Shown one piece after another: positions 2,814 to 23,571 of a stretch of 64,000 nt of DNA. The position numbers were made by a program, and so were the translations under genes. Source of the stretch: Spirochaetia bacterium (lineage in GTDB: Bacteria; Spirochaetota; Spirochaetia; JAFGXN01); contig JAXEIF010000005.1 of the NCBI GenBank assembly GCA_034120015.1, positions 7,467-71,466 of the forward strand. Direction: 5' to 3'. Position 1 is the first letter of the stretch, and each line of letters starts with the position of its first letter. Under the pieces are notes generated by a model. That model saw only the letters and a list, made by a program, of their open reading frames with translations. It was not told where the DNA came from and did not search any database.

Positions 2814-2876
2814 TTGAGCTCCGCTCCGAAAAAATAAAAGACCGATAATTTCTTATCGGCCTTTTATTTCAATAAA

Positions 2877-4076: not shown

Positions 4077-5877
4077 ATTTTTTGCCTCCCCACATAACCT
4101 GAATTCGTTTCATTTTAAGTGTTTCGTAACAGAAATCAAAAATCAGCCGAGTTACAAAAATTGCCGTAAACATGGAACAGACAACACCGATTGCCAGAGT
4201 ATAGGCGAACCCCTGAATCGCACCGGTACCCAGAACAGAGAGAACCAGAGCGGCAATCAGAGTCGTTACGTTTGCATCAATCAGAGCCCAAAGGGCTTTG
4301 TCATATCCGGCTTTTAAACCGGCAACAGCCGATTTTCCGGCTCGCTGCTCTTCACGCATACGTTCAAAAATAATAACGTTGGCATCGACCGACATACCGA
4401 TCGAAAGAATAATACCCGCCAGACTGGTCAGAGTCATTGTAAAACCCAATTTTGCCAGAATGGCAAAAATAAAGACCAAATCAAGGAAAAGGGCAACATC
4501 GGCAATGAACCCGCCTCCGCGGTAATACAGCAGCATAAAGATAAAAACGGAAATAAATCCGATTGAAAGCGCCCAAATCCCTGCCTGAATCGCATCCTGC
4601 CCCAGCGAAGCATTCACTTCCTGAATTTCCTCGACCTGCAATTCGACGGGCAAAACTCCGGTTTTCAGCAGTTTTCTCAGATTTTCGGCTTCTTCTCCGG
4701 TAAAGCTTCCGGAAATCTGAACGTTACCGCCGGCAATTCTTCCGGAAATGGTAGCCGCCGCTTTGATTTTTTCATCCAGAGCAATTACCATCGTTTTGCC
4801 TTTGTTGGCTTCGGTCAGATCGGCAAACCGAACCTGAGGATTAAAAGATTTACCGTCGGAATCTTCACCTTCCGTTCCGATGCGGAACGAAACCGCCGGT
4901 TTTCCGTATTGATCCTGCGCACGGGCGACATCACTCAAATAAACACCGCTGAAATCGGGAACCGCCGTAACAACCAGATAATCCTGCAACTCGTCTTCGC
5001 CGTAAACGTCTTTATCGTAAAGCCCCATGACTTTGTAACCGGGATTGACAATTCCTTTATCAACCAAAGCCGCCTGCGCCGCTTCATCATTGGTATCAAA
5101 ACCGCTTTTGGTTGTTCCGAATGTATCCATCAGATAGGAGCGGAAGGCTGCAGTCTGATTTGCATCGACGATATGGAAATTTAAACTTCCTTTTCCCATA
5201 AGGAAAGTCTTGATACGTTCCGAGTCGCGGGCGCCGGGCAATTCGACAAGAATACGGTCGTTACCGACCTTTCTTACGGAAGGCTCGGAGACTTTAAACG
5301 CATCGACACGGTCGTAAATAACGTCCATCGCATCCATGACAGGATCGTCGCCCTGAGTCACTTTCTCCCAGTCGACATCGGCTTTCAGCATAAAACTGAT
5401 ACCGCCGTTCAAATCCAGACCGAGCTTCAAAGCACTTTCGCGCAGGTTTCGGACATCCTGAATGCGTTTTACCAATGCAACGGCATCTGTTTGAATAAAC
5501 AGAGCTTTGGCTTCGCCTTCGGTCATATTCGGGAATGCATACTGAACGGTATTCAGATAGGTCCATTCCGCAGGCTTTTTTTCTTTCATTTTTTTCAGAT
5601 TCTGTTTTGCAACCGGAATCAGGAATTCATACTTTTCCGCAATCACCGCATCGGGCGTCGTTCGGGATAACTCACGAAATTCGTTCCACTTCTTCTCCGC
5701 TTCCGTTGTGGCGTAATTACGGACATCCTGACCGGGCAAGACTGCCAGATCTTTTTCTTCCTGTGTAACACCCCAGTCCGTATACCAGCGAACGGTCGGC
5801 ATCAGGAAAAGAACGGCAATTACGCAAACCAACAAGAAAATCAAAAATCTTGATGTTTTACTCATTTTTCTCTCCAC
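4063..5877 (-). CDS. secD: Protein translocase subunit SecD
   Basis: 604 aa with a large periplasmic domain and a C-terminal SecD membrane domain (…FIFMLLYYRGGGFIADVALFLDLVFIFAILAKLGFTMTLTSLAGIILSIGMSVDANVIIFERMREE…). Confidence 0.85.
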   Translation of the reverse strand: MERKMSKTSRFLIFLLVCVIAVLFLMPTVRWYTDWGVTQEEKDLAVLPGQDVRNYATTEAEKKWNEFRELSRTTPDAVIAEKYEFLIPVAKQNLKKMKEKKPAEWTYLNTVQYAFPNMTEGEAKALFIQTDAVALVKRIQDVRNLRESALKLGLDLNGGISFMLKADVDWEKVTQGDDPVMDAMDVIYDRVDAFKVSEPSVRKVGNDRILVELPGARDSERIKTFLMGKGSLNFHIVDANQTAAFRSYLMDTFGTTKSGFDTNDEAAQAALVDKGIVNPGYKVMGLYDKDVYGEDELQDYLVVTAVPDFSGVYLSDVARAQDQYGKPAVSFRIGTEGEDSDGKSFNPQVRFADLTEANKGKTMVIALDEKIKAAATISGRIAGGNVQISGSFTGEEAENLRKLLKTGVLPVELQVEEIQEVNASLGQDAIQAGIWALSIGFISVFIFMLLYYRGGGFIADVALFLDLVFIFAILAKLGFTMTLTSLAGIILSIGMSVDANVIIFERMREEQRAGKSAVAGLKAGYDKALWALIDANVTTLIAALVLSVLGTGAIQGFAYTLAIGVVCSMFTAIFVTRLIFDFCYETLKMKRIQVMWGGKKYENN

Positions 5878-6465: not shown

Positions 6466-6798
6466 TTATATCAATTTGACCTTCACATTTTGAGGCACGG
6501 AGAAAACACCGAAAAGCCGGTTCAAAACATCAACGGAAGCATAATGGCATGATTCGTTTTTGTTGATAACGGACAGAAGATACTCCAAATCAGACTGCCC
6601 CGACCCGATACCTGCCTCGCGATCGAAAAAAGCGGCACAAAAAGCCGGTTTATACAACCCCAAATCTGCCAGCTGCCGGGAAGTTTTTGTTTTGTATTTG
6701 CGTTTCAGCGTTTTATCGACAATGACAACATTATCGTAAGAACCGACCGTAAAAATAAAATCTTCTTTCTTCATATATATCAATTTAACATAATTCAT
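6466..6798 (-). CDS. Small hypothetical protein (about 110 aa). The listed ORF start at 6894 overlaps pdxA and is probably too long.
   Basis: The reading frame is open. Internal Met codons at 6798 and 6774 follow the pdxA stop. No motif was recognised. Confidence 0.3.
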   Translation of the reverse strand: MNYVKLIYMKKEDFIFTVGSYDNVVIVDKTLKRKYKTKTSRQLADLGLYKPAFCAAFFDREAGIGSGQSDLEYLLSVINKNESCHYASVDVLNRLFGVFSVPQNVKVKLI

Positions 6799-7862
6799 TT
6801 TAAATGACAATTCTTTTTTTCGTTTCCTGCCGGACGAAGCACCATGCGCGCTGCCGCGGAAATCGCCTCCTTCATTCCGGTTGCATCGGCGCACCCTTTC
6901 CCTGCAATATCGAATGCGGTACCATGATCGACGGAAACGCGCAGAAACGGCAGCCCGGCTGTGACGGAGACTGTTCGATGAAAATCCAGCGTTTTACAGG
7001 CGATATGTCCCTGATCATGATAAAGTGATACAACGGCATCGAATTTCCCCTCTGCCGCCTGAGCAAAGACCGAATCGGCTCCGACCGGACCGACCGCGTC
7101 GATACCTTCCGCAACGGCAGCCTCCACCGCCGGTGCGACCGCCGTCATCTCTTCATCGCCGAGCAGACCGTGTTCACCGCAATGCGGATTGAAACCGGCC
7201 ACCGCAATCTGCGGCCGTTCAACGCCCCACTGCCGCAGAACATCCCGACAGCGCCCGATAAACCGGCACAGCGCCCCGGTTTCCAGAGTCGCCGGTACCT
7301 TCGAAAGCGGCAGGTGCCGTGTATAAAAAAAGACACACAGCTTGCCGGTCAGAAAAACCGTTAACGGATTTTCCGATCCGGTGAGCCCCGCGAAGATTTC
7401 GGTGTGACCGATATACGGCACGCCCGCCGCGCGCAGCGACTCTTTGTTCAGAGGTGCCGTCACCACCGCGTCACAGAATCCCTTTTCGACCAGACGAACG
7501 GATTTTTCGACGGCATCATACGCTGCCGAGCCGCCCGCGGCCGAGACAGTCCCCCATTGCCATTCCCCCGGATCGGGACAGTCGGCATATTCGATCACCG
7601 ACGAACGCAGCGGTCTCCTTCGGCTGACATCAAACGGACGCAAACGCAAGCGGACACCCAAAGACACCGCGGTTTTTTCCCAAACCGGACGGGCTCCGAC
7701 CAGAACCATCCTCGCCTGCCGCCGCAACCGCCGGTCGACGGCCGCCCGAATCGCAATTTCCGGACCGATACCGGCCGGGTCACCGGCTGTCACCGCCAAA
7801 ACGGGAAGCTGACTGTTTTCTAACATATATACCGCCTTATCCTGTTTTATAAAAAAAGGCAC
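6795..7862 (-). CDS. pdxA: PdxA-family 4-hydroxythreonine-4-phosphate dehydrogenase-like NAD-dependent dehydrogenase
   Basis: 355 aa with 'LAVTAGDPAGIGPEI' and 'VSLYHDQGHIACK', which are typical PdxA motifs. PdxA2-type substrate specificity cannot be excluded. Confidence 0.8.
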   Translation of the reverse strand: MPFFIKQDKAVYMLENSQLPVLAVTAGDPAGIGPEIAIRAAVDRRLRRQARMVLVGARPVWEKTAVSLGVRLRLRPFDVSRRRPLRSSVIEYADCPDPGEWQWGTVSAAGGSAAYDAVEKSVRLVEKGFCDAVVTAPLNKESLRAAGVPYIGHTEIFAGLTGSENPLTVFLTGKLCVFFYTRHLPLSKVPATLETGALCRFIGRCRDVLRQWGVERPQIAVAGFNPHCGEHGLLGDEEMTAVAPAVEAAVAEGIDAVGPVGADSVFAQAAEGKFDAVVSLYHDQGHIACKTLDFHRTVSVTAGLPFLRVSVDHGTAFDIAGKGCADATGMKEAISAAARMVLRPAGNEKKNCHLK

Positions 7863-7927
7863 TGCGCCTTTGCCTGTTTCCGATTCGGAAAAGACCGCTG
7901 CAGTGCCCGTTTATCGGGATCAACCCC

Positions 7928-9598
<1,671 letters not shown>

Positions 9599-12713: not shown

Positions 12714-12794
12714 ATGAAAAAAAAACTGTACTTTTATCTGCCGCATTGTATAATGTATACAGAGAATATCTTACACCAGAAACAGGAGTCGGCT

Positions 12795-13550
12795 ATGAAA
12801 AATCAGAAAGTGCTGGCATATTGCAATCTTTTCGGCGTTCTGCGTAATATCGAATATCTGGTCACCAACGACGAAGAATGCAAAAAAGCCGTTGAAGGAA
12901 AAAACCTGTCCGTTCAGTTCAAGGTCAAAAACGGACCGAGCGGGCAACTCACTTTTAAAAACGGACAGGCGGAAATGAAAGAGGGATTTCACCCTTCAAA
13001 TATTCTTCTTTTCTTTACCTCACCCGAACATTTCAACAAAATGATTGACGGGAAAGCCAATCCCATACCTCTGAAAGGACTGACAAAAATAGGCTTTCTG
13101 ACGGGACCGTTCAAAAAAATAGCGGATCGGCTGGCGTATTATCTGAAGCCGACGGAAAACCTGCTATCCGACACCGATTATTTTGCCAAAAGCACCGAAA
13201 TGACATTCTACACCGCGTTCTCGGCGCTGGCTCAAATCGGAAATCACGATCCGAAAGGAATTCTGAATGCGAAACATATCCCCGACGGCATCATTCAGGC
13301 TTCAATCGGCGATAAAACGGGTCTTTACATTACGGCCAAAAACGGGCGTCTTACGGCACACAAGGGTTTCGCCGAAAAATCGAATGCCCGGCTGGTTTTC
13401 AAAGACATTGAAGCGGCACAGGGAATTCTTTCCGGGAAAACCGACACCTATGTCGCTTTGGCGACGGGAGATCTTCTCATGAAAGGATTTATCCCGATGG
13501 TCGAGTATATGAACCCGATTCTGGAACTGGTCAGCGGATATTTGGCATAA
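12795..13550 (+). CDS. Hypothetical protein, paralog A of the 16733 ORF. The probable start is the ATG at 12795 with an AGGAG ribosome-binding site; the ORF track starts at 12714.
   Basis: Shares blocks with the 16733-17539 protein ('FTSPEHFNKMIDGKANPIPLKG' versus 'FKSPEHLCGFFKGKLFPLPKMKG', and similar C-termini). It is the first gene of a tight operon. Confidence 0.5.
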   Translation: MKNQKVLAYCNLFGVLRNIEYLVTNDEECKKAVEGKNLSVQFKVKNGPSGQLTFKNGQAEMKEGFHPSNILLFFTSPEHFNKMIDGKANPIPLKGLTKIGFLTGPFKKIADRLAYYLKPTENLLSDTDYFAKSTEMTFYTAFSALAQIGNHDPKGILNAKHIPDGIIQASIGDKTGLYITAKNGRLTAHKGFAEKSNARLVFKDIEAAQGILSGKTDTYVALATGDLLMKGFIPMVEYMNPILELVSGYLA

Positions 13551-13560
13551 GGAGAACGGC

Positions 13561-14823
13561 ATGAAAGAAACATATTCAAACAGCAAATCACTGGAACTTT
13601 TTAAAAGAGCAGTCCGCTATATTCCGACAGGAATCCCCGGTCATTTGGGACCGGTTCAGTCTCAGTTTATTCCCGCCAACGCCTATCCGTTTTATGTCGA
13701 CCGCGTTAAAGACTCCTACTTCTGGAGCATCGACGGCAACAAATATATCGACTATATGTGCGCCTACGGACCGAATATTTTGGGGTACAATAACGATATC
13801 GTCGACAAAGCTGCCAACGAACAGCTGAAGAAAGGAAACTGTATGGCCTTGCCGGCCAAAGCACAGGTTGATTTGGCCGAATTGCTGTGCAATACCATTG
13901 AAATTGCCGATTGGGCATTTTTTCTGAAAAACGGCGGAGACGCGACCGCTTTCGCAGTTCTGACCGCCAAAGCGGCGACAGGCCGCAATAAAATCGTACG
14001 TATTCAGGGCGGTTACCACGGCGTCGCACCGTGGACTCAGGCTGAAGGTGCCAACGGAATTACAAAAGCCGATTTACAGGATGTCATTATCATTCCCTGG
14101 AACGATGCCGAAGCCTTTGAAAAAACGGTAGCCGAGCATAAAGACTCGATCGCCTGCTTTATTGCCACACCGTACGACCACCGCATTTTTGCCGACAACG
14201 CATTACCGGTGCCCGGCTACTGGCAAAAGATCCGGGAAATCTGCACGAAAAACGGAATTGTCCTGATTGTCGATGATGTCCGCTGCGGTTTCCGTCTTCA
14301 CGTCGAAGGAAGCGCCAAATATTTCGGCTTCAAACCCGACCTGGCCTGCTACTGCAAAGCTCTCGCCAACGGATACAATATCTCGGCTGTTGTCGGAATC
14401 GACAGTCTGAAATCGGCGGCCGGATCGGTTTTTTTCACGGGCAGCTACTGGTCGAGCGCCGTTCCAATGGCAGCGGCAATCGCCTGTATTACCGAAATGA
14501 AAAAAATCGATATTGCCAATCTGCTGATCGAAAAAGGGAAAAAATTTGCTTCCGGAATGATTGATGCCGGTCATGCACACGGAATCGATATGAAATTCTC
14601 CGGTGTCGAATCGATGCCTTTTATGCGCATTACAAACGATCCGACAACGGAAATGATGCAGGATTTCTGTGCCGAATGCGTCAAACGCGGCGTATTTTTC
14701 GTCAGCCATCATAACCATTTTATGAACGCCTCGCTGACGGATGCCGACATCAAAAAAACCATCGAAATAGCGGACGAAGCTTTTGCGGTCGTAGCCAGGC
14801 TGCACCCCGATAAAGTCAACTGA
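13561..14823 (+). CDS. Class III (PLP-dependent) aminotransferase, glutamate-1-semialdehyde aminomutase-like
   Basis: 420 aa. The N-terminus 'YIPTGIPGH…' and the architecture are typical of GSA-aminomutase-like enzymes. '…YCKALANGYN…' probably contains the PLP lysine. Confidence 0.8.
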   Translation: MKETYSNSKSLELFKRAVRYIPTGIPGHLGPVQSQFIPANAYPFYVDRVKDSYFWSIDGNKYIDYMCAYGPNILGYNNDIVDKAANEQLKKGNCMALPAKAQVDLAELLCNTIEIADWAFFLKNGGDATAFAVLTAKAATGRNKIVRIQGGYHGVAPWTQAEGANGITKADLQDVIIIPWNDAEAFEKTVAEHKDSIACFIATPYDHRIFADNALPVPGYWQKIREICTKNGIVLIVDDVRCGFRLHVEGSAKYFGFKPDLACYCKALANGYNISAVVGIDSLKSAAGSVFFTGSYWSSAVPMAAAIACITEMKKIDIANLLIEKGKKFASGMIDAGHAHGIDMKFSGVESMPFMRITNDPTTEMMQDFCAECVKRGVFFVSHHNHFMNASLTDADIKKTIEIADEAFAVVARLHPDKVN

Positions 14824-14853
14824 TAACTAAAGATATATTCCAAGGAGAAAAAA

Positions 14854-15705
14854 ATGGGACTGACTAAAGAAGAATACCTTGCTCTCGAAAACAAAGCAAG
14901 GGAATTACGTAAACTGACAATCGATACGGTGATGTGGGCAAACGGAGGACACATCGGAGGAGCACTGAGCTCGGTCGATATTCTGACCATTTTGTATTAC
15001 AAGTACATGAATATCGATGTGAAAAATCCCCGTTGGGAAGATCGCGACCGATTCATCCTCAGCAAAGGACACATCGGCGTCGGGTTCGCCCCCGTTCTGG
15101 CCGACAAAGGATTTTTTGATAAGGAACTTCTGAAAACCTATAACCATACATTCAGTAAACTGGGTATGCATCTGGACAGAAACAAGGTTGTCGGATTGGA
15201 TGCCTCAACAGGATCGCTCGGACACGGTCTTTCCATCGCTCTCGGTATGGCTCTCGGCGGACGGCTGCAGAACAAAAACTTTAAAACGTACTGCCTTCTG
15301 GGCGACGGAGAGTGCGACGAAGGATCCGTTTGGGAAGCCGCTATGGCTGTGACCCATTACAAAGCGACCAATGTCATTACCATTATTGACCGCAACAAAT
15401 GTATGATTGACGGACGCACCGAAGATGTCATGAATCTGGAACCGTTTGCGGATAAATGGACCGCTTTCGGATTCGACGTTAAAATTGTTGACGGTCACGA
15501 TATGTATGCTCTTGCCGACGCAATCGAGTACGCTCTCAACGCAAAAGACAAACCGGTGGCCATTATTGCCGACACACTGAAAGGCTGCGGTGTTGCCGAT
15601 ATTCAGGATAACTATCAGTATCATTACGCCAGTGTCAATGCCGAGACAGGCGAGCGGTACAAAAAGCAGATTGACGAATATCACGACAGCCGATTGAAAA
15701 ACTAG
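14854..15705 (+). CDS. Transketolase, N-terminal (TPP-binding) subunit of a split enzyme
   Basis: 283 aa with 'GGHIGGALSSVDILTILYY', 'GSLGHGLSIALGMA' and 'LGDGECDEGSVWEA', which are TPP-binding motifs of split transketolases. Confidence 0.9.
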   Translation: MGLTKEEYLALENKARELRKLTIDTVMWANGGHIGGALSSVDILTILYYKYMNIDVKNPRWEDRDRFILSKGHIGVGFAPVLADKGFFDKELLKTYNHTFSKLGMHLDRNKVVGLDASTGSLGHGLSIALGMALGGRLQNKNFKTYCLLGDGECDEGSVWEAAMAVTHYKATNVITIIDRNKCMIDGRTEDVMNLEPFADKWTAFGFDVKIVDGHDMYALADAIEYALNAKDKPVAIIADTLKGCGVADIQDNYQYHYASVNAETGERYKKQIDEYHDSRLKN

Positions 15706-15715
15706 GAGGAAACGG

Positions 15716-16723
15716 ATGGCTAACTTAAACTATACAATGCTTGACGCGGAAAAAATGTCCACCGCGGAATATTACGGAAAGGTTCTTTGCGATTTGGCAG
15801 CAAAGGACAAACGGGTTGTCGGTCTGTCCGCCGACCTTGCCAAATCGACAAAAATAGGAGCTTTGGCAAAAGATTTTCCCGAACGGATTTTTAACCTCGG
15901 TATTGCCGAGCAGAATATGATCGGCGTTGCCGCAGGTATGGCCGAAACAGGATTGATTCCTTTCGCCTCGACATTTGCGATTTTTGCCTCAATGAGAGCA
16001 CTGGACCAGTTTCACACCGATGTCTGCTATCAGAATATGAATGTAAAAGTGATTGCAACCCATGCGGGTCTCTCGTTCGGACAGGCAGGAAGCACTCATC
16101 ACTGTACGGAAGATATCGGAATTATGAGAACGATGGCCAACTGCCGCGTTATCGTTCCGGCCGACGGGATGGAAACGGTCAATGCGGTCATCGCCGCCTA
16201 CGAAAACGACGGTCCGTTTTACATCCGCATCAACCGCGGTTACGATATGCCGGTTTTTAAAAGTACCGATTACGGATTTCAGTTGGGCAAGGCGGTACAA
16301 ATGGCGGAAGGAACCGATTTGACCATCATTGCCTGCGGAGCCTGTGTCGCGCGTGCGATCGCTGCCGCCAAAGAGCTGGAAGCCGACGGCATCCGCGCCC
16401 GTGTTCTGAACATGCACACCATTAAACCGATTGACAAAGCAGCAATCGAAAAAGCGGTTATCGACACAAAACGAATCATTACCGTTGAAGACCATAATAT
16501 TATCGGAGGACTGGGAAGCGCCGTTGCCGAAACCGTTACCGAACTGGGCAAAGCCTGCGTCATGAGAAAACTGGGGGTTCCCGATACCTACTCCATTATC
16601 GGACTCCATGAAGATTTGATGTCCGAATACGGATACGACTCGAACGGTATTGTCAAAACCGCTCATGAAATCATGGGTGTTCGGATTGAAGAAGACGACG
16701 ACTGGGATGACGACGATTTCTAG
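15716..16723 (+). CDS. Transketolase, C-terminal (pyrimidine-binding) subunit of a split enzyme
   Basis: 335 aa with '…FNLGIAEQNMIGVAAGMA…' and 'THAGLSFGQAGSTHH…'; it ends in an acidic tail DDDWDDDDF. Confidence 0.9.
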   Translation: MANLNYTMLDAEKMSTAEYYGKVLCDLAAKDKRVVGLSADLAKSTKIGALAKDFPERIFNLGIAEQNMIGVAAGMAETGLIPFASTFAIFASMRALDQFHTDVCYQNMNVKVIATHAGLSFGQAGSTHHCTEDIGIMRTMANCRVIVPADGMETVNAVIAAYENDGPFYIRINRGYDMPVFKSTDYGFQLGKAVQMAEGTDLTIIACGACVARAIAAAKELEADGIRARVLNMHTIKPIDKAAIEKAVIDTKRIITVEDHNIIGGLGSAVAETVTELGKACVMRKLGVPDTYSIIGLHEDLMSEYGYDSNGIVKTAHEIMGVRIEEDDDWDDDDF

Positions 16724-16732
16724 GAGGACGGA

Positions 16733-17539
16733 ATGGCTGCTGCAATTACAAAAGAACAGGAAACCCTTTTCTCGACCAATCTTTTTCTTTATGCGGTCTG
16801 CCCTCTTCTGAAAACCATTTTGGAAGACCGTCCGGCACTGCAGAAAGGCTGGCAGTCCAAAAAGGCGATTGCCCAAATCAGCTGTAAAACGGCGGAAGGG
16901 AAAATGGCCATCCACTATATTTTTGAAAACGCGGACTGCACTCCGAAAAAGGGCGTTTCGGAAGAATCTCCGGACATCGAACTGGAATTCAAATCTCCCG
17001 AACATCTTTGCGGATTTTTCAAGGGAAAACTCTTTCCTCTTCCCAAAATGAAAGGGGCAATAAAACGATTTCCCGTTTTTCTCAATTTTATGAAACTGCT
17101 TTTAACCATGTCCGGACTCCTCGGTGCAAAAACGGCTCCGAAAAAAGACTGCGACCAAAAACTGCTGGTTAAATGTATGTTTTATCTGCTGTCCCGCGGC
17201 ATCAGCATTCTGAACAAACTGGGGCATCCCGATGTTTCAGCATGGGCGGCTGTCAGCCCCGACCGAATTTACGCATGGGCCGTTGAAGGCGAACCGGAAC
17301 TGGCAGCTTACCTCCGCGTCAAAAAGGGAAAAACAAAAGCCAGGAGAGGCGAATATACAAAAAGTATGCCTTTTTTTACAATGAAATTCGACTCGCCGAA
17401 AAGCGCACTGGGAATTCTGCAGGAAACAGATGATATGATAGAAGCAACCATACAGCAGAGACTGATTATGGTCGGCGGTCCCGAATTCGGAGCCCAGCTG
17501 GGTGACTTTATGCTTCTCGTCGGCAGCATGGTAAAATAG
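16733..17539 (+). CDS. Hypothetical protein, paralog B of the 12795 ORF
   Basis: 268 aa, sharing sequence blocks with ORF 12795-13550. It lies between the split transketolase and a VOC gene, with an 8-10 nt gap on each side. Confidence 0.5.
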   Translation: MAAAITKEQETLFSTNLFLYAVCPLLKTILEDRPALQKGWQSKKAIAQISCKTAEGKMAIHYIFENADCTPKKGVSEESPDIELEFKSPEHLCGFFKGKLFPLPKMKGAIKRFPVFLNFMKLLLTMSGLLGAKTAPKKDCDQKLLVKCMFYLLSRGISILNKLGHPDVSAWAAVSPDRIYAWAVEGEPELAAYLRVKKGKTKARRGEYTKSMPFFTMKFDSPKSALGILQETDDMIEATIQQRLIMVGGPEFGAQLGDFMLLVGSMVK

Positions 17540-17547
17540 GAGGTTCC

Positions 17548-18066
17548 GTGAAAGTCAGAGGTTTCAATCATGTCGGTATTACCGTTAAAAATTTTGAAAA
17601 AGCCGTAAAATGGTATCACGAAGTTTTCGGTCTTTCTCTTATCTCCAAAGGCGGTTTGAATGCCGAAAGAATGAGCGCAATGAAAAAATTATATAACCTG
17701 CCGGACGGGGTGAGCGTCCGGTTCGGTTTTCTGATTGCGCCCGGAGGAGGTCTTGTTGAAATTTTCGAATTTTCGGAAACAGCACCGTTCGAACACTGCT
17801 GGAATCGTCCCGGAACACACCACTTTACACTCGACGTCAAAAATATTAAAAAGTGGTACAGAAAGCTGAGCGGACGGACCGATGTCGAAATTCTCAACGA
17901 GCCCCAACGCGATGACGGAGCCGATTGGTTTTTCTTTCGCGATCCCGACGGTAATCTCATCGAATTGATGGATTTACGCGCCAATTATTTTCCGATCAAA
18001 TACCTGAGCCGGCTGATAGGATTCTTTATGCGAAAAGGAAAATTTAAAAATGTCTACCGTTATTAA
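17548..18066 (+). CDS. VOC-family (glyoxalase/bleomycin-resistance/dioxygenase) protein
   Basis: 172 aa with the VOC N-terminus 'MKVRGFNHVGITVKNFEKAVKWYHEVFGL'. Confidence 0.75.
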   Translation: MKVRGFNHVGITVKNFEKAVKWYHEVFGLSLISKGGLNAERMSAMKKLYNLPDGVSVRFGFLIAPGGGLVEIFEFSETAPFEHCWNRPGTHHFTLDVKNIKKWYRKLSGRTDVEILNEPQRDDGADWFFFRDPDGNLIELMDLRANYFPIKYLSRLIGFFMRKGKFKNVYRY

Positions 18067-18089: not shown

Positions 18090-18100
18090 CCCCCCCCCCC
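18090..18100. repeat. Homopolymeric poly-C tract (11 nt) in the promoter region, 42 nt upstream of the GH16-like lipoprotein gene
   Basis: The sequence reads '…ttaaaatcaCCCCCCCCCCCgaattccaaaTATAATataataaatatttaaaGGAGtttggtATG'. The tract lies between an AT-rich upstream element and a TATAAT-like -10 hexamer. Confidence 0.9.
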
Positions 18101-18142: not shown

Positions 18143-20404
18143 ATGAAAAAATTTCTAACAGGGGGGATTATTTTTTTTCTCCTCTTCACAGGATGTCCGC
18201 AGCCGGAAACGGATTCGGATATTTTTACCGGCATTAAAGTTGCCGATTTTTTTGTTTTTGCGGAAGGAGATACTTCCGGTTCGGTAACAAAACCGTTCAC
18301 TTTTCAAACGGAAAAAAACGGAATGAAAATGACTGTTAAAGTTCCTTCATCAATGACCGTTACAGGAAATACAATTTCCGTCAACTGGTACAACGTCTAC
18401 TCTCCGACACAAGAAGCTGTTCTGACAGCAACACTCACAAAAGACGGTCAAAGCAAAGCCTTTCCTTTTACGGTCGTCTTAAAACGGACTCTCGGCTCGA
18501 TGCCCGTTTCCGAACTGATTCTCTTTGATGAAAAACTGGATACTATCGATGCCGTTACAAGCAGTTTTACACTCTCGCAGACAACCGGCAAGTACGGAGA
18601 AACAGTGTCATGGAATTTCACCACGGAATCGCCAGATCTTGTTTACGACGAATCGACAGGTCGGGTCTCGGTTACCCTGACAAACGATCGTCAAAGCGCA
18701 ACTGCCGAAGCTGTTTTTACAAAAGAAGGCTTTGAGTCTGTCACAAAGACTTTTGATCTGATCATTTTGACATCAAGCGAAGGCTATTCATGGACACCCG
18801 ATTCCTTAACCGACTATATTACCCTCGGTAACAGCGGAAAAGATTACCTGTGGCGTATTCGCGATAACTTTACCCTAAAAACATCATTCGATGCCGAATC
18901 CGGTCACGGCGCGGGAACCGTTACATGGACATCTTCCGATGACGCCGCCATTTCCGTTAACGGCAGTACGGCAACCGTTACCCGCGGTTTGGACAGCCAA
19001 AAGGTAACTCTGACAGCAACATTTCAGGAAACAGATTCCGAGAAAAAATCAAAAGATCTTACAATTGATGTTCTTGTCATGGAAACAATTCCGGCAACTC
19101 TGACCGTTGACGGAAAAACCTATAAACTGGTCTATTTTGACGCTTTCGACAATCAAGCCATTCTGGAAGCCAACTGGGATATAGGCAATCCGGGACACAA
19201 TGCGCCGGAAATCGGCAACAACAATCTCGACCCGACCTACTTCAAAGCTCCTGACGGACAGTTCCACGGATACGCCGATGAATGGCAAAAACAACCGACA
19301 TGGTCACCGAAAGCCACTTACATCGAAGACGGAAAAGCACGTCTGCTGGCTAAATACGACACGGAAGCCCAAATCGGCGTTGCCGGAGCACTTCACTCCA
19401 AACGGCTTTTCCCTCACGGCGTTTTTCACGCCAGATGGACTCAGAAACGTGACAGCGATTCCCACTGGGACGCTTACTGGCTCGACACCAATCAGCCCTT
19501 CTCCAAAGCCTACGGCGAAAAACTCCTCAATCTCCCGAAAGCCCTTCGCAAACAGGTGGCAGAGTCATCCCGCGGTGAGGGGTTCTTCGATAACAAAGCT
19601 TCAAACATTCAGCACGGAAATACTGCTGTATCGAATCCGATTCTCTATCAGTCTCAATACACTCTAAAAACAGACAGCTCTATACCCGACTGGGGATTTA
19701 CCGCTGCAAAACGGGTAGACAAAATCGGACGATGGTACAACGGCGAGCAGCGCTACGAACTGGACGCTTACGAGTGGGTCAACGGTACCGGACAGAATAA
19801 CGTGATCCACACCTGGCACTGGATGAGAGGTTTCCCGGGAAACCAAACAGGTTCTCTGAGTGGCGTAGACAAAAAGTGGTATGTCGGAGACGTTGCACGC
19901 AACCAGGGGAAAGTAGGCGGATACTCCACTACCTATTCGGCAGCCGTCAATAAAACACCCTCTTTTACTCTCACAGCGCTGTACAATGACAGCAAAATTG
20001 CTTTTTACTATAACGCTCACGGTGAAAATAATTTTTCTTCTCCCAAATATTCCCGCTCCAAACAGACCGGAGATATGTTTGACCCCAACATAACGGAAGA
20101 AGATAATAGACAACCGTGGCCGAACGACGAGTTTAATCCCGTTCAGGTGAAATTTACGGTTGAACCGGGGCAGTGGGACGATAATTTTTATCAAATTACA
20201 ACAGCTTTCCGAAATAACCCTGAAAATTACGATGCTATGGATATCGAATACTTCGCCTACTACGCAGCGGAAGACGATATGCTCAATCCGAACATCGGAG
20301 ACGAAAACAGCGGTGTTCCTTTAACGGCGATTACCGATATGGATAATGTCACAGAATTCGCTGAAACACAAGCCAAACTGACAAAGGAATGGGTACAGAA
20401 ATGA
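18143..20404 (+). CDS. Surface lipoprotein with three N-terminal Ig-like repeats and a C-terminal GH16-like (concanavalin-fold glycoside hydrolase) domain
   Basis: Lipoprotein signal 'FLLFTGC'. Three repeats of about 90 aa are each predicted by the sequence to bind nothing recognisable but share an ending pattern (…FPFTVVL / …FDLIIL / …TIDVLV). The C-terminal domain has 'WDIGNPG', 'HSKRLFPHGVF', 'HWDAYWLDTNQPFSKAYGEK' (compare GH16 'WPAFWML') and 'YELDAYEW' (ExDxxE catalytic motif). Confidence 0.65.
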   Translation: MKKFLTGGIIFFLLFTGCPQPETDSDIFTGIKVADFFVFAEGDTSGSVTKPFTFQTEKNGMKMTVKVPSSMTVTGNTISVNWYNVYSPTQEAVLTATLTKDGQSKAFPFTVVLKRTLGSMPVSELILFDEKLDTIDAVTSSFTLSQTTGKYGETVSWNFTTESPDLVYDESTGRVSVTLTNDRQSATAEAVFTKEGFESVTKTFDLIILTSSEGYSWTPDSLTDYITLGNSGKDYLWRIRDNFTLKTSFDAESGHGAGTVTWTSSDDAAISVNGSTATVTRGLDSQKVTLTATFQETDSEKKSKDLTIDVLVMETIPATLTVDGKTYKLVYFDAFDNQAILEANWDIGNPGHNAPEIGNNNLDPTYFKAPDGQFHGYADEWQKQPTWSPKATYIEDGKARLLAKYDTEAQIGVAGALHSKRLFPHGVFHARWTQKRDSDSHWDAYWLDTNQPFSKAYGEKLLNLPKALRKQVAESSRGEGFFDNKASNIQHGNTAVSNPILYQSQYTLKTDSSIPDWGFTAAKRVDKIGRWYNGEQRYELDAYEWVNGTGQNNVIHTWHWMRGFPGNQTGSLSGVDKKWYVGDVARNQGKVGGYSTTYSAAVNKTPSFTLTALYNDSKIAFYYNAHGENNFSSPKYSRSKQTGDMFDPNITEEDNRQPWPNDEFNPVQVKFTVEPGQWDDNFYQITTAFRNNPENYDAMDIEYFAYYAAEDDMLNPNIGDENSGVPLTAITDMDNVTEFAETQAKLTKEWVQK

Positions 20405-21969
20405 AATTTTACAGAACTGTTTTAACATCAATGGGAATGGGGGCAGCGGCTTTGGCCGTTGCCGGCTGTCCCGAAGAACGCAAACCGATTTATCCCGACC
20501 AACTGACAATGCCGGGAACCGGAAACGACCAAAAGGCGGTCAAAACCGCATCCGAATACGGTATCAGCGAAAAGCCGAACGTTATTTTTATTCTTCTTGA
20601 CGATGCCGGCCACGGCGATATCAGCTGTTACGGGCAGAAGAATTTTCAAACGCCCAATATTGACAGTCTGGCAAAGAACGGTATCCGCTTTGTCAACAAT
20701 TACGCCGGTGCCCCGGTCAGTGCCTCATCCCGCTGTGCACTGTTTACCGGTAAGACGACCGGACACAGTGCCATTCGCGGTAATCTCGAACTGGGCGCCG
20801 GAGTCGGGTTGGATCCCGCAACCGTCACCAAAGAAGGCCAGGAAGGACTCCCCGATTCGGAATATACTCTGGCACAGTTATTCAAAGAGAACGGCTACAA
20901 CACCGCCCTGGTCGGAAAATGGGGTATGGGAATGCCGATAAACAACAGCTCTCCACTGAACAAAGGATTTGATCATTATTACGGACACCTTTGCCAGCGG
21001 ATGGCGCATTCCTACTTTCCCGATCACGTTTGGGAAGACGATTCAAAGGTTGAATTCAAGGACAACACAGGGATGACCGGAAATGTGTGGCTTCACGATG
21101 AATTCGAAAAGAAAACAGCCGAATATCTGACAACATACCTCGCGGAGTCCACACCGTTTTTTCTGTTTTGCACCTACACCATTCCGCACGGCGCTCTGCA
21201 AATCCCGGACGGGAAACTCAACGATGCGAATTATCATCCTTACACAACCGCCGAATGGTGGAGTAAAGCTTCGGATGATATGAAACGGTATGCGATTATG
21301 ATGCACCGCGTGGATCTGACTGTCGGAAAGATTATCGATCAGGTTGAGGCAGCAGGAAAACTGAACAATACCCTGATTCTTTTTTCCAGTGACAACGGAC
21401 CTGCCGACGAATACGGCGCCGATCCGAATTTTTTTGAAAGCGCCGGACGTTTCGGCAATGAACGGCTTCGCGGCATTAAACGCGCTTTGTACGAAGGAGG
21501 TGTTAAAGTTCCGTTTATCGCATCATGGAACGGAACAATCAAACCTGCCGAAAGCCTGCATATCATGGCCGGGTATGACATTATGGCGACGATGGCTCAA
21601 ATATTGGGAACCGATTTATCGCAAAAAACAAAAACCGACGGACTCTCTTTTCTTCCGACATTAATGGGCGATACCGTCAACCAGAAAGAACACCCCTATC
21701 TTTATTGGGAATTTGTCGGCAATACGGCTTCGGAAGGCGGCGGCCCCCGGCAGGGAGTCCGCAGCGGTGACTGGAAAGCGATTTTGAACTTCGGAGTAAC
21801 AACTTCGGCCAAAGCAGGCGAAGGGAATATCGAACTTTACCATTTGGGCGATGATCCCGGAGAGGCTGATAATGTCGCCACTCTTTACCCCAATATTATT
21901 GCGTCGATGAAACAAATTATGATAAACGCTCATGACAACAATGATAAATTCCCTCAAATAAAAAAATAA
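20401..21969 (+). CDS. Sulfatase-family (alkaline-phosphatase superfamily) lipoprotein with a non-canonical active-site motif
   Basis: Lipobox 'LAVAGC'. 'NVIFILLDDAGHGDISCYGQ…TPNIDSLAKNGIRFVNNYAGAPVSASSRCALFTGK' aligns with the sulfatase signature, but C-x-P-x-R is replaced by S-A-S-S-R. A start at 20401 gives an ATGA overlap with the upstream stop; the ORF track starts at 20389. Confidence 0.8.
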   Translation: MKFYRTVLTSMGMGAAALAVAGCPEERKPIYPDQLTMPGTGNDQKAVKTASEYGISEKPNVIFILLDDAGHGDISCYGQKNFQTPNIDSLAKNGIRFVNNYAGAPVSASSRCALFTGKTTGHSAIRGNLELGAGVGLDPATVTKEGQEGLPDSEYTLAQLFKENGYNTALVGKWGMGMPINNSSPLNKGFDHYYGHLCQRMAHSYFPDHVWEDDSKVEFKDNTGMTGNVWLHDEFEKKTAEYLTTYLAESTPFFLFCTYTIPHGALQIPDGKLNDANYHPYTTAEWWSKASDDMKRYAIMMHRVDLTVGKIIDQVEAAGKLNNTLILFSSDNGPADEYGADPNFFESAGRFGNERLRGIKRALYEGGVKVPFIASWNGTIKPAESLHIMAGYDIMATMAQILGTDLSQKTKTDGLSFLPTLMGDTVNQKEHPYLYWEFVGNTASEGGGPRQGVRSGDWKAILNFGVTTSAKAGEGNIELYHLGDDPGEADNVATLYPNIIASMKQIMINAHDNNDKFPQIKK

Positions 21970-21984
21970 TAAAAGGAGAAATCT

Positions 21985-23571
21985 ATGAAAAAGAAATCAT
22001 TACTGTTTTTAGGCGTATTAACCGCTTCGGCTCTGTTTTTCGGATGTCCCGGACCGGAAGAATCGGCAGACGCCACCTCTCTGACATTGACGACACCGCA
22101 GGCCTACCTGGCCCCCGGACTGACAATGACCGTCACGGCTACTGTCAAACCGGAAGGATTTCCGGTCACCTTTTCCTCCGACAATATGGGCGTTGCCTCC
22201 GTCAGCAATAAAGGGGTTGTATCGGGCGTTTCCGAAGGAACGGCAACAGTTACAGCCGCTGCCGGAACAAAAAAAGCGAGCGCAACCGTGACCGTTGTGC
22301 CCTATACGTCCGTTTCGATAGCGCCTCTTCCTGAAGACGATTACACTATTCCCAATACAACGTCAAAACAGCTGACACTGAAGTGGGAACCTTCCGGTGT
22401 TTCAGTTGCTCCCGAGATTATCAAATGGGTCAGTTCCAATCCGGACGCCTTCCCGGTCGATAAAAACGGACTGGTCACCTCGAACAGCGATACGGAATCA
22501 GCTGAAATTCATGCCGAAATTTACGACGGACTGATGAAAACAAAAGCCGTTACCGTCAGCGGGGACGAAGCGCCTCCCGTTCCGGCACCGGTTGTCGAAA
22601 ATTTGCGGGCATTCACCGGTGATGCCCGTTACACCATTTACTGGGATGCAGTAGAAAATGCAACGGAATATAAACTTTATTGCACAACTGACACCGCCAA
22701 ACCGGCAGAAGCAACTGCCACATTAACAGAAACATCTCATCATGTTACATCTGCAACAAATGGAGAAACAATCAACATTTGGGTCGAAGCAGTCGTAGCG
22801 GGCACCGTTCAGATCAATGACCCGGCACACACAACTGTAACGGTCGGATACAACGGAAACAGCAATGCATCGATTACAGTCGATTCGCAAACCTACACAC
22901 TCGACCGCGAAGTCGATTTCCGCGAAGGAACTTTCGAACAGAAATGGCCGACATCGACAATACTTTACAGTGTCGATTCAGAGACAGGTATTTTAACGCA
23001 AAAAGGCGGCAGCGGTTCTTCCGGTAGCAGTTATATGGATGAGGCTGACGGAGCCGGAGCCAATTCACGCTTAATCTGGACTCCGCCCGCAGATGTGCTT
23101 CCGATCTCCGAATACAGTTATATCGAGGTTGAACTGAAAACTTCACAGCCGTCGGGCACCCCTGGATTCTGGGTCGTTCTGAACCACAACAATATCATCA
23201 GTTATGAACTTGTTCATTATAACAACAATAATCCGAACGGATGGTTTCTGTCTTACGGTGGTGAATGGCGCAGTAACGGAAAAACACAAAAATTTCATGC
23301 CGGATCAGGAATTTCACTCCCTTCTCAAGGCGATATTCATAAATTCGGAATTTTATTTCCCGATAAAACACCTTCAAAAATACGAATCTATTCAGATCGA
23401 ACAACGGCCTACGTTAATAAGAATAGTTTTGACGGCGGAAATGCTGCGTCGGCACCTCAATCATGGACAGAGAATATACCGACCTATTTCGAATTTATCT
23501 TCGGAGCAGCCGACTGTCCGAACTATACGGCAGAAATTTCCAAAATCCGCTACTATAAAGCGTCCAACTAA
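21985..23571 (+). CDS. Surface lipoprotein with Big_2-like Ig domains and a C-terminal beta-sandwich domain of unknown function
   Basis: Lipobox 'LFFGC'. Big_2-like segments are present (…GVVSGVSEGTATVTAAAGTKKASATVTV…). No catalytic motif was recognised. Confidence 0.55.
   Translation: MKKKSLLFLGVLTASALFFGCPGPEESADATSLTLTTPQAYLAPGLTMTVTATVKPEGFPVTFSSDNMGVASVSNKGVVSGVSEGTATVTAAAGTKKASATVTVVPYTSVSIAPLPEDDYTIPNTTSKQLTLKWEPSGVSVAPEIIKWVSSNPDAFPVDKNGLVTSNSDTESAEIHAEIYDGLMKTKAVTVSGDEAPPVPAPVVENLRAFTGDARYTIYWDAVENATEYKLYCTTDTAKPAEATATLTETSHHVTSATNGETINIWVEAVVAGTVQINDPAHTTVTVGYNGNSNASITVDSQTYTLDREVDFREGTFEQKWPTSTILYSVDSETGILTQKGGSGSSGSSYMDEADGAGANSRLIWTPPADVLPISEYSYIEVELKTSQPSGTPGFWVVLNHNNIISYELVHYNNNNPNGWFLSYGGEWRSNGKTQKFHAGSGISLPSQGDIHKFGILFPDKTPSKIRIYSDRTTAYVNKNSFDGGNAASAPQSWTENIPTYFEFIFGAADCPNYTAEISKIRYYKASN

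Follow-up and report, generated by a model that had tools for sequence, protein, structure and literature searches.

A conserved cassette of a split transketolase, a FumI-type aminotransferase and two double-SCP2 proteins as a candidate module for sphingoid-base cleavage

Within a 64,000-nucleotide (nt) stretch of DNA from a Spirochaetia bacterium (assembly GCA_034120015.1, contig JAXEIF010000005.1, positions 7,467 to 71,466), referred to here as the window, six consecutive genes (g1 to g6) bring together a class III aminotransferase, a split transketolase (TK), two paralogous proteins modelled as tandem sterol carrier protein 2 (SCP2) folds, and a vicinal oxygen chelate (VOC) protein. The aminotransferase and the TK probably act consecutively on a non-phosphorylated hydrophobic amino-alcohol or ketol. 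For the five-gene core, with or without the VOC gene, we tentatively propose, as a plausible reading that may well prove wrong, a cytoplasmic module that degrades or detoxifies sphingoid-type long-chain 2-amino-1,3-diol lipids without oxygen or phosphorylation; candidate substrates would be sphinganine, sphingosine, phytosphingosine, and their bacterial iso-branched analogues. Still more tentative is the wider claim that the cassette represents the first TK-dependent route of sphingoid-base cleavage, an anaerobic and ATP-independent alternative to the sphingosine kinase/sphingosine 1-phosphate (S1P) lyase pathway in which double-SCP2 proteins ferry the lipid.

All six genes are encoded on the plus strand. 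Double-SCP2 paralog A (g1, 12795–13550, 251 amino acids (aa)) is followed by the pyridoxal 5'-phosphate (PLP)-dependent class III aminotransferase (g2, 13561–14823, 420 aa), the N-terminal TK subunit, which binds the pyrophosphate of thiamine diphosphate (ThDP) (g3, 14854–15705, 283 aa), the pyrimidine-binding and C-terminal TK subunit (g4, 15716–16723, 335 aa), double-SCP2 paralog B (g5, 16733–17539, 268 aa), and the VOC protein of glyoxalase/dioxygenase fold (g6, 17548–18066, 172 aa, GTG start). The intergenic gaps measure 10, 30, 10, 9, and 8 nt, and an AGGAG/GGAGG Shine–Dalgarno site precedes each of the six starts at the usual distance. The initial annotation of this DNA, made from the sequence alone, had described six co-directional genes with gaps of 8–30 nt and taken them for a co-transcribed accessory cassette. 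All open reading frames (ORFs) are present at these positions, the gene order is kept in 59 of 61 related loci from several phyla, and we share the reading as a co-transcribed cassette.

The distribution of the cassette was followed through g5, whose alignment was scanned against one genome per species. At least 560 species encode a g5 relative, and 80 loci were fetched; gene order was counted in the 61 loci with at least 4.3 kb of sequence upstream of g5, and VOC and neighbor genes were counted in 84 loci. The order g1–aminotransferase–TK-N–TK-C–g5 is kept in 59 of the 61 informative loci, while the remaining two (L008 and L061) comprise TK-N, TK-C, and g5 only. The loci span Spirochaetes, Clostridia, and Actinomycetota. 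Among those fetched, the nearest relatives belong to uncultured Spirochaetes (81–91% identity). Further carriers are gut Clostridia from ruminants, termites, and humans (Acutalibacteraceae, Oscillospiraceae, Candidatus Fimenecus, Clostridiaceae), the cultured sediment and wastewater anaerobes Oceanirhabdus seepicola, Paramaledivibacter caminithermalis DSM 15212, and Brassicibacter mesophilus DSM 24659, and, among actinobacteria, Mobiluncus porci and one metagenome-assembled genome of the Bifidobacteriaceae. Because a VOC gene lies directly 3' of g5 in only 16 of the 84 loci, the conserved unit comprises the five genes g1 to g5, and the VOC gene is an optional, if frequent, add-on. A recurrence of the same six-gene arrangement in other taxa, as envisaged in the initial annotation, is borne out for the five-gene order, with the sixth member present in a minority of the loci.

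The 967 neighboring ORFs of the 84 loci were clustered and then sampled for annotation. Outside the core, every neighbor gene is limited to 16 loci or fewer. Those that recur as extras are the VOC gene, a TetR regulator (11 loci), an ene-reductase, and a DrrA-type ATP-binding cassette (ABC) exporter that follows the cassette in about five loci; other recurring neighbors (SecA, KsgA, pseudouridine synthase) reflect lineage synteny, and the flanks differ between clades. No sugar transporter or kinase was found among the clustered neighbor genes sampled for annotation, and since no non-core neighbor passes 16 loci, neither belongs to the conserved unit. The cassette is therefore a self-contained module, with no transporter, kinase, or dehydrogenase found travelling with it. 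A full-text literature search returned no description of this gene set. A plasmid-borne mobile cassette was also considered and rejected, as g5 has no match among 72,556 plasmid records.

A few loci depart from the common arrangement. In the two partial cassettes (L008, 6117–10188; L061, 6070–7958), neither g1 nor an aminotransferase gene occurs within 6 kb of the TK-N, TK-C, and g5 genes; in L008, from a member of the Treponemataceae, the trio is followed by a VOC gene and a gene for an ATC_hydrolase-family protein. The same trio is seen in L060, where the upstream sequence is limited to 1.5 kb. Two termite-gut Oscillospiraceae carry inserted genes. In L079 (2760–3806), an endonuclease/exonuclease/phosphatase-family protein is encoded between the aminotransferase and TK-N; it has no PDB or NCBIfam match, and we do not assign it as a sphingomyelinase. 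L033 contains a beta-lactamase-fold hydrolase and a PHB-depolymerase-like esterase before TK-N (2841–4797) and a 433-aa protein without a family match between TK-C and g5 (6672–7973). The inserted genes may encode enzymes that trim a conjugated form of the substrate or act as lipid-trimming enzymes.

The aminotransferase g2 matches Pfam Aminotran_3 with 127 bits and falls far under the cut-offs of all NCBIfam equivalogs, including HemL (TIGR00713, 227 versus 527 bits) and GntE (234 versus 525 bits). Its best PDB-sequence match is FumI, the "aminopentol aminotransferase" of Sphingopyxis sp. MTA144 (6hbs), with a full-length alignment that is 38% identical across 405 positions (E = 6.6e-90, 305 bits); the glutamate-1-semialdehyde aminomutases in the PDB reach 133–163 bits. 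In an alignment of 61 cassette aminotransferases with FumI and E. coli HemL, the cassette proteins and FumI have three indels in common relative to HemL: an 11-residue deletion in the gating loop, a two-residue insertion, and an 11-residue C-terminal deletion. Both have also lost the GVNSPVR motif, which holds the carboxylate of glutamate semialdehyde, and the Schiff-base lysine is retained in the cassette proteins. As judged by these matches and indels, g2 is a FumI-type aminotransferase. The initial annotation had left room for an enzyme other than canonical HemL, and the HemL score, the loss of the SPVR motif, and the gating loop shortened by 11 residues all bear this out. FumI acts on hydrolysed fumonisin B1, an analogue of sphinganine, and passes its C2 amino group to pyruvate; the Km is 1.1 µM (PMC3136697). 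By analogy, g2 would deaminate a long-chain 2-amino-3-ol lipid.

FumI-like proteins are numerous, with at least 5,860 at E < 1e-30. In Variovorax and Rhizobium (L092 and L093, 8001–16300), a FumI-like aminotransferase heads an operon with a TetR regulator and a peptide/opine-type ABC transporter of the SBP_bac_5 family; the Variovorax operon also holds amidases, and the Rhizobium one a class IV aminotransferase.

The two TK subunits are clear members of their family. g3 matches Transketolase_N (PF00456, 145 bits), and g4 matches Transket_pyr (PF02779, 140 bits) and Transketolase_C (PF02780, 106 bits). Their best PDB matches are the two chains of the split TK of Carboxydothermus hydrogenoformans, the N-terminal chain for g3 (6yak, E = 1.7e-72) and the other chain for g4 (6yaj, E = 1.2e-81). 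Against NF004559 (short transketolase, cut-off 488), the subunits score 247 and 262 bits; as this model describes the fused protein, only their sum of about 509 exceeds the cut-off.

Alignment of 72–73 cassette TK orthologs with E. coli TktA, the Carboxydothermus TK, and human TKT reveals a conserved catalytic center in an altered channel (E. coli numbering throughout). The residues of ThDP binding and catalysis (H26, H66, H100, D155, E160, N185, H261, E411, H473) are invariant in the cassette TKs, and so are the phosphate-binding residues S385, H461, and R520. H100 and H473 contact the C1 hydroxyl of the donor, and their retention argues for a true CH2OH–CO– ketol donor rather than a methyl ketone. 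In contrast, the canonical R358 is replaced by Ala in 61 of 72 sequences and by Ser, Thr, Met, or Gly in the others; D469 has become Ala and E468 Gln (71/72 each), L466 (canonically Leu, Val, or Ile) is Phe in all 72, G262 is Tyr in all 73, and I187 (canonically Ile or Leu) is Cys or Asn. The canonical split TKs of Carboxydothermus and Collinsella have R358, D469, E468, and V466. Hence, the residue pattern of a pentose-phosphate TK is incomplete in the cassette enzymes, whose phosphate set lacks R358 and whose stereoselecting D469 is replaced. Read from the alignment, g3 and g4 form an enzyme of the transketolase family with intact catalytic residues and a remodelled substrate channel. The window holds no other TK, and a housekeeping role of g3/g4 appears unlikely given the active-site changes. 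The initial annotation had placed this TK outside normal pentose-phosphate metabolism, a view upheld by the replacement of R358 and D469 in essentially all cassette orthologs.

The functions of the altered positions are known from other TKs. H26, H100, H261, D469, and H473 form hydrogen bonds to the sugar hydroxyls, with D469 binding the C2 hydroxyl of the aldose and selecting the stereoisomer (PMC11387542). In E. coli TK, mutations at R358, S385, D469, and R520 make the enzyme favor non-polar aliphatic and aromatic aldehydes over phosphorylated sugars (PMC7661550, PMC5073344). For a comparison of specificity, we used five non-cassette split TKs from annotated replicons. The enzyme of Collinsella is canonical. 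Those of Rhizobium and Agrobacterium, encoded beside a sugar ABC transporter and an FGGY kinase, keep R358 and carry D469L and H461S, and that of Salmonella, linked to an ascorbate-type phosphotransferase system (PTS), keeps R358 and carries D469N. Of the TKs compared, only those of the cassette combine a lost R358 with the Ala, Phe, and Tyr changes, and this combination coincides with the absence of a kinase or PTS gene.

The two flanking proteins would bring a hydrophobic ligand to these enzymes. The initial annotation had called the first and fifth genes paralogs, quoted common blocks (SPEH, PLPK/PLKG), and suggested a search for an SCP2-like fold; all three points hold. BLASTP aligns g1 and g5 with 25% identity over 245 residues (E = 6e-8), the blocks occur in both proteins, and profile–profile comparison (hhalign) relates their N-terminal halves with 98% and their C-terminal halves with 95% probability. 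Moreover, the N- and C-terminal halves of g1 are homologous to each other (hhalign, 87%). In Pfam, g1 has a weak SCP2 match (PF02036, 30.6 bits, above the cut-off of 21.3), while g5 has no Pfam match at E ≤ 0.01 and no NCBIfam match. AlphaFold models built on 30–35 homologs are of high confidence (g5, pLDDT 94.3 and pTM 0.90; g1, pLDDT 92.7) and display the same repeated helix–sheet–helix order. Foldseek searches of the PDB with both models return SCP2-type domains only, namely SCP2 itself, the SCP-2L domain of MFE-2, UbiJ-SCP2, and the C-terminal domain of the alkylsulfatases SdsA1 and Pisa1, with target-normalised TM-scores up to 0.72. Because each match spans about half of the query and the fold order repeats, the models assign both proteins as tandem double SCP2 folds, an architecture for which we know of no described precedent. 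g1 and g5 may bind a hydrophobic ligand in an internal cavity.

The g5 family is small, with 307 representatives at E ≤ 0.001 among 1.84 billion protein cluster representatives, and its named relatives are all "hypothetical"; g1 has 255 homologs, some named "putative sterol carrier protein" at the source. The g1 gene always adjoins the aminotransferase gene, and the g5 gene always adjoins the TK genes. A Rosetta-stone profile search of 1.84 billion proteins yielded one informative fusion, TK-C::g5; the other long matches involve unrelated or unknown domains. In this natural fusion (P0317, from a high-GC organism), TK-C and a g5-like part are joined by a Thr/Ser/Pro-rich linker, and the TK part carries R358S and a change of ED to QG. 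This arrangement suggests two sub-modules, g1 with the aminotransferase and g5 with the TK, the latter pairing being indicated by the partial cassettes L008 and L061, which keep g5 with the TK, and by the fusion.

The locus of the fusion (L086, 7138–14035; Logan SRR30174086, 68.5% GC) represents a divergent system. A TK-N gene precedes the gene for the TK-C::g5-like double-SCP2 fusion, and downstream follow two secreted-looking unknown proteins, a small VOC protein, and a membrane enzyme of the fatty-acid-hydroxylase superfamily (PF04116). Neither an aminotransferase nor g1 is encoded nearby.

The optional sixth protein, g6, matches Pfam Glyoxalase (PF00903) with 73.6 bits and stays below all NCBIfam subfamily cut-offs, its best scores being those for glyoxalase I, methylmalonyl-CoA epimerase, and FosA/FosB (37.5, 36.1, and 34.3 bits versus cut-offs of 120, 115, and 171). 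Its closest PDB relative reaches only E = 1.7e-4. H8, E71/E74, H92, and E139, the His/Glu metal ligands, are invariant in 17 orthologs, which marks g6, by its residues, as a metal-dependent enzyme of the VOC superfamily; it may act as a ketol epimerase or isomerase or in aldehyde detoxification. In six loci from Clostridiaceae and Spirochaetia, the VOC gene is directly followed by that of an Fe–S flavin ene-reductase (690–768 aa) of the BaiCD/bilirubin-reductase/FadH type. These extended cassettes, which also occur in Paramaledivibacter, usually continue with a TetR regulator. These stretches lie at about 9300–12350 in L009, L011, L013, L016, L018, and L053, and at 9321–12329 in L062 (Brassicibacter), where the reductase is split into two genes. 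An ene-reductase would suit bases with a double bond at C4, such as sphingosine, which should give rise to a 2-enal or enone.

The conserved gene order, the SCP2 folds, the kinship of g2 with FumI, and the TK substitutions are what the analysis shows; from them we infer a substrate, an order and direction of steps, a partner enzyme for each SCP2 protein, and a role for the VOC protein. In the proposed pathway, g1 would take the lipid from the membrane and offer its head group to g2, which would shift the C2 amino group to a 2-oxo acid (pyruvate in the case of FumI). The resulting 1,3-dihydroxy-2-ketone would formally be a lipid-tailed ketose and would thus present the exact donor motif of a TK. 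Served by g5, g3/g4 would then cut between C2 and C3, releasing a fatty aldehyde (a 2-enal if the substrate is sphingosine), and would pass the ThDP-bound glycolaldehyde C2 unit to an aldose phosphate, so that C1 and C2 enter the pentose-phosphate pool. The retained R520, H461, and S385 could bind this aldose-phosphate acceptor. Where present, the VOC protein might epimerise or isomerise the alpha-hydroxyketone or handle a reactive carbonyl. In extended cassettes, the ene-reductase would reduce the conjugated double bond, and TetR would control expression.

The initial annotation had thought of an amino-keto sugar. We favor a hydrophobic, non-phosphorylated amino-alcohol lipid because of the two SCP2-fold proteins, the kinship with FumI, the lack of a sugar transporter or kinase among the sampled neighbors, and the loss of the phosphate-binding arginine of the TK. 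A sphingoid substrate would account for all of these, including a TK channel that is more hydrophobic and less cationic. Cleavage is preferred over synthesis because the module has neither a supply of fatty aldehyde nor a downstream acylation step, because its recurrent accessories are a TetR regulator and an ene-reductase, and because sphingoid bases are antimicrobial, so that a detoxifying module could spread across phyla. The only bacterial route against these antimicrobial bases that has been studied is sphBCD of Pseudomonas, an unrelated set of periplasmic redox enzymes with a product yet to be identified (PMC11398299).

Several observations weigh against a sphingoid substrate or against its cleavage. 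An identity of 38% to FumI does not permit a transfer of substrate specificity, and the FumI homologs of Variovorax and Rhizobium (65–70% identity) have peptide-type ABC transporters and amidases as neighbors and lack a ThDP enzyme in their vicinity. Judging from this gene context, the natural substrates of the FumI family are evidently broader than fumonisin and not confined to lipid amines. The D469 replacement, too, is by comparison of sequences a general mark of re-purposed TKs and not, taken alone, of lipophilicity; because sugar-linked split TKs also replace D469, the argument for a lipid rests on the loss of R358 and the gained aromatic residues together. With R520, H461, and S385 in place, anion binding in the channel is still feasible. 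For passive carriers, g1 and g5 have unusually conserved polar residues (S76, P77, H79, and N81 in g1; D177, R178, Y180, and R195 in g5). Stereochemistry poses a further difficulty. By our own derivation from known structures, natural D-erythro bases would yield a (3R)-ketol, whereas canonical TK donors are (3S). Either a reversed TK selectivity or an epimerase would be needed, yet the VOC protein is missing from most cassettes; single mutations can reverse the stereoselectivity of E. coli TK. Neither an aldehyde dehydrogenase or reductase nor a ceramidase occurs among the clustered neighbor genes sampled. Finally, the functional claims are all deduced from sequence, from which the direction of a pathway cannot be read.

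Run backwards, the same enzymes would make a sphingoid-like base without serine palmitoyltransferase. The TK would add a C2 ketol from a ketose phosphate or hydroxypyruvate to an SCP2-held fatty aldehyde, and the aminotransferase would aminate C2 to give a 2-amino-1,3-diol lipid. Both reactions are reversible in principle, and an engineered cascade of TK and omega-transaminase converts propanal to (2S,3S)-2-aminopentane-1,3-diol (Ingram 2007 and Smith 2010, as cited in PMC5073344). Replacement of D469 in E. coli TK favors non-hydroxylated aldehyde acceptors (PMC7661550, PMC5073344), and the canonical (3S) product stereochemistry would pose no problem. A PlsC-like acyltransferase gene lies a few kb off in eight loci, in addition to the DrrA-type exporter that follows about five cassettes; the acyltransferase, however, is distant, restricted to closely related genomes, and perhaps a matter of synteny. 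The sampled neighbors include no acyl-CoA or acyl-ACP reductase, conserved N-acyltransferase, or head-group enzyme, and the recurring TetR regulator and ene-reductase are typical of inducible catabolism or detoxification. To our knowledge, sphingolipids have not been reported from the carrier taxa, which also counts against biosynthesis, and the nearest characterised aminotransferase deaminates in vivo (PMC3136697). We regard this direction as unlikely, though it deserves to be kept in view. Somewhat more doubtful is the catabolism of a soluble amino-polyol, amino-sugar derivative, or short ketol, with the SCP2 proteins serving a non-lipid role as scaffold or polar-ligand binder. Sugar pathways commonly employ accessory split TKs, in which positions 461, 466, 468, and 469 also vary, some loci lie near glycoside hydrolases and LacI regulators, and both the retained phosphate/anion site and the conserved polar residues of g1 and g5 would suit such a substrate. 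On the other hand, the sampled neighbors include neither a transporter for sugars or amines nor a kinase, isomerase, or dehydrogenase, and the flanks vary by clade; every structural match of g1 and g5 is an SCP2 domain that binds hydrophobic ligands; R358 is lost here and kept in the compared sugar-linked TKs; and the closest characterised aminotransferase acts on a lipid.

A specialised-metabolite cluster, in which a TK-type carboligation is followed by transamination, has a precedent in AniP and AniQ, but we consider it improbable for the cassette. Homologs of AniP are always flanked by the aminotransferase AniQ, and the substrates of AniP are non-phosphorylated (PMC11387542); an ABC exporter follows the cassette in some Clostridia, and the distribution across phyla is patchy. 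However, AniP is without the histidine-rich TK motif (PMC11387542), whereas the cassette TK keeps H26, H66, H100, H261, and H473, which implies a genuine ketol donor. The sampled neighbors lack tailoring enzymes and NRPS/PKS or resistance genes, the plasmid records contain no copy, and in hundreds of gut and sediment species the cassette sits among housekeeping genes. A chance juxtaposition of a housekeeping pentose-phosphate TK and HemL, finally, is effectively refuted. The window has no second TK, and the summed score of the subunits above the NF004559 cut-off speaks for a bona fide TK; yet the aminotransferase is 300 bits short of the HemL cut-off (227 versus 527) and without the SPVR motif and 11 gating-loop residues, essentially every TK ortholog is without R358 and D469, and a five-gene order with two SCP2 proteins is kept across phyla. 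Family cut-offs, motifs, and active-site residues thus rule out this pairing.

Returning to the proposed cleavage of a sphingoid base, one of the closest known systems is the fumonisin degradation cluster. g2 is a full-length relative of its enzyme FumI, which strips the C2 amine of a sphinganine-like 2-amino-3-ol lipid (PMC3136697), and the Sphingopyxis granuli locus L091 also encodes a ThDP enzyme and a TetR regulator. In L091 (10001–16212, contig JBBCKJ010009864.1), a FumI homolog of 88% identity is followed two genes downstream by a 567-aa ThDP enzyme. Unlike g3/g4, this enzyme is single-chain and of the acetolactate-synthase, benzaldehyde-lyase, or 2-hydroxyacyl-CoA-lyase type, not a TK. 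We know of no enzyme to which the cleavage of 2-keto-hydrolysed fumonisin has been assigned; the L091 protein is a candidate, and its type would fit a 1-deoxy (methyl-ketone) substrate. The fumonisin cluster, from an aerobic proteobacterium, further differs by its carboxylesterase, tricarballylate genes, and TonB receptor and by its lack of SCP2 proteins; L091 contains the FumD carboxylesterase and tricarballylate-utilisation genes, which are absent from the window and the related loci examined. By analogy, deamination of an amino-lipid followed by ThDP-dependent acyloin cleavage may be a recurrent strategy. Both this parallel and the ene-reductase of the extended cassettes would suit a role in lipid catabolism.

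The engineered TK/omega-transaminase cascade combines the same enzyme types, joining an aldehyde and a C2 ketol to a 1,3-dihydroxy-2-ketone and then to a 2-amino-1,3-diol, and the TK positions mutated for non-polar aldehydes (D469, R358, R520) overlap with those naturally substituted in the cassette (PMC5073344, PMC7661550). It is synthetic, however, and runs in the synthetic direction on short soluble aldehydes and hydroxypyruvate without carrier proteins, whereas the cassette is a natural, conserved pairing with lipids as its probable substrates and cleavage as its probable direction. Accessory split-TK operons such as those of Rhizobium/Agrobacterium and Salmonella likewise recruit a split TK with diverged channel residues outside the pentose-phosphate pathway; SqwGH, a sulfo-TK, and the apulose-4-phosphate TK AptAB are of the same general kind. 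Unlike the cassette, the former operons carry transporters with kinases or a PTS and keep R358 for a phosphorylated substrate, and none contains an aminotransferase or SCP2 proteins. AniP and AniQ of anisomycin biosynthesis resemble the cassette as a natural, conserved pair of TK-family enzyme and aminotransferase on non-phosphorylated substrates, but AniP is a single chain with aromatic keto acid donors (PMC11387542), and the biosynthetic gene cluster of the pair, found in an actinomycete, also encodes a dehydrogenase and a glycosyltransferase.

With UbiJ/UbiT and the SCP2-like domain of alkylsulfatases, g1 and g5 have in common the use of an SCP2 fold as a non-catalytic holder of a hydrophobic substrate for soluble enzymes. 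They differ as a tandem double fold and as a diverged pair with one member beside each enzyme; moreover, g5 has drifted past Pfam detection, and both carry invariant polar motifs. If our proposal is right, the cassette would share the C2–C3 cut to a fatty aldehyde (hexadecenal in the case of sphingosine) with sphingosine kinase and S1P lyase, and tolerance to antimicrobial sphingoid bases with Pseudomonas sphBCD (PMC11398299). By Pfam, neither a kinase domain nor a group II decarboxylase-fold PLP lyase nor any domain beyond those named above is found among the six products, and in contrast to sphBCD with its periplasmic oxidase, cytochrome c, and aldolase (PMC11398299), the cassette includes no periplasmic oxidase or cytochrome c. 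The proposed chemistry of transamination and ThDP cleavage would depend on neither ATP nor oxygen. Among known systems, the cassette is thus best described as an accessory split-transketolase catabolic cassette with an unprecedented set of partners and probable substrate class.

Sphingoid bases are abundant in guts, where they derive from the host epithelium, the diet, and Bacteroidota membranes, and they act as signals as well as potent antimicrobials. If the proposal is true, Firmicutes, spirochaetes, and actinobacteria of gut, rumen, termite gut, and sediment could detoxify or use host, dietary, and Bacteroidota sphingolipids, and a five-gene module found in at least 560 species would offer a concrete candidate pathway that can be expressed in a heterologous host. 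For biocatalysis, the cassette provides a TK that naturally bears engineer-style substitutions for non-polar aldehydes and is already paired with a transaminase and solubilising carriers. The tandem double-SCP2 proteins add an apparently undescribed architecture. Should the proposed substrate prove wrong, the cassette would still stand as a widespread operon without an assigned function whose TK has clearly been re-purposed.

Upstream of the operon lies an 81-nt non-coding leader (12714–12794, plus strand) with a perfect TATAAT (12749–12754) and the Shine–Dalgarno sequence AGGAG (12784–12788). The mechanically called ORF of g1 opens at 12714; this start is unlikely because the Shine–Dalgarno site precedes 12795 and the orthologs are 251 aa long. 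The TATAAT suggests a promoter at this position, read from the sequence alone, as a consensus promoter scan called no full sigma-70 promoter in the leader. A scan for promoters and terminators found eight promoter-like sites around the operon, compared with 8.3 expected by chance, and called no terminator between g6 and the next gene. Control by a riboswitch or other RNA was considered and excluded, as Rfam yields no RNA family anywhere in the window. A 338-aa ORF that runs antisense across g4 and g5 (15989–17005, minus strand) is most likely a mechanical artefact of coding-strand composition and not a gene.

In the window, the cassette is placed between housekeeping genes (SecDF, PdxA, GroEL, KsgA, ComEC, and a CPBP protease) and genes for surface lipoproteins and a sulfatase. 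GC content and GC content at third codon positions of the six genes are about the same as in the adjacent CPBP gene upstream and lipoprotein gene downstream. The 76-nt spacer between the g6 stop and the aBig_2 surface lipoprotein gene (start 18143) is AT-rich and contains a run of 11 cytosines (18090–18100), about 43 nt 5' of the lipoprotein start codon; such a homopolymer might switch the lipoprotein promoter on and off by slipped-strand phase variation. Immediately 3' of the spacer, in the same orientation (18143–23571), lie the genes of the 753-aa aBig_2 protein, a 526-aa sulfatase, whose start overlaps the preceding gene by 16 nt, and a 528-aa Big_2 protein, all apparently exported. Of the three closest loci, only L007 has the aBig_2 gene again downstream of the cassette, and beside cassettes of other lineages none of the three genes was encountered. 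Together, they may form a surface cluster that degrades sulfated glycans.

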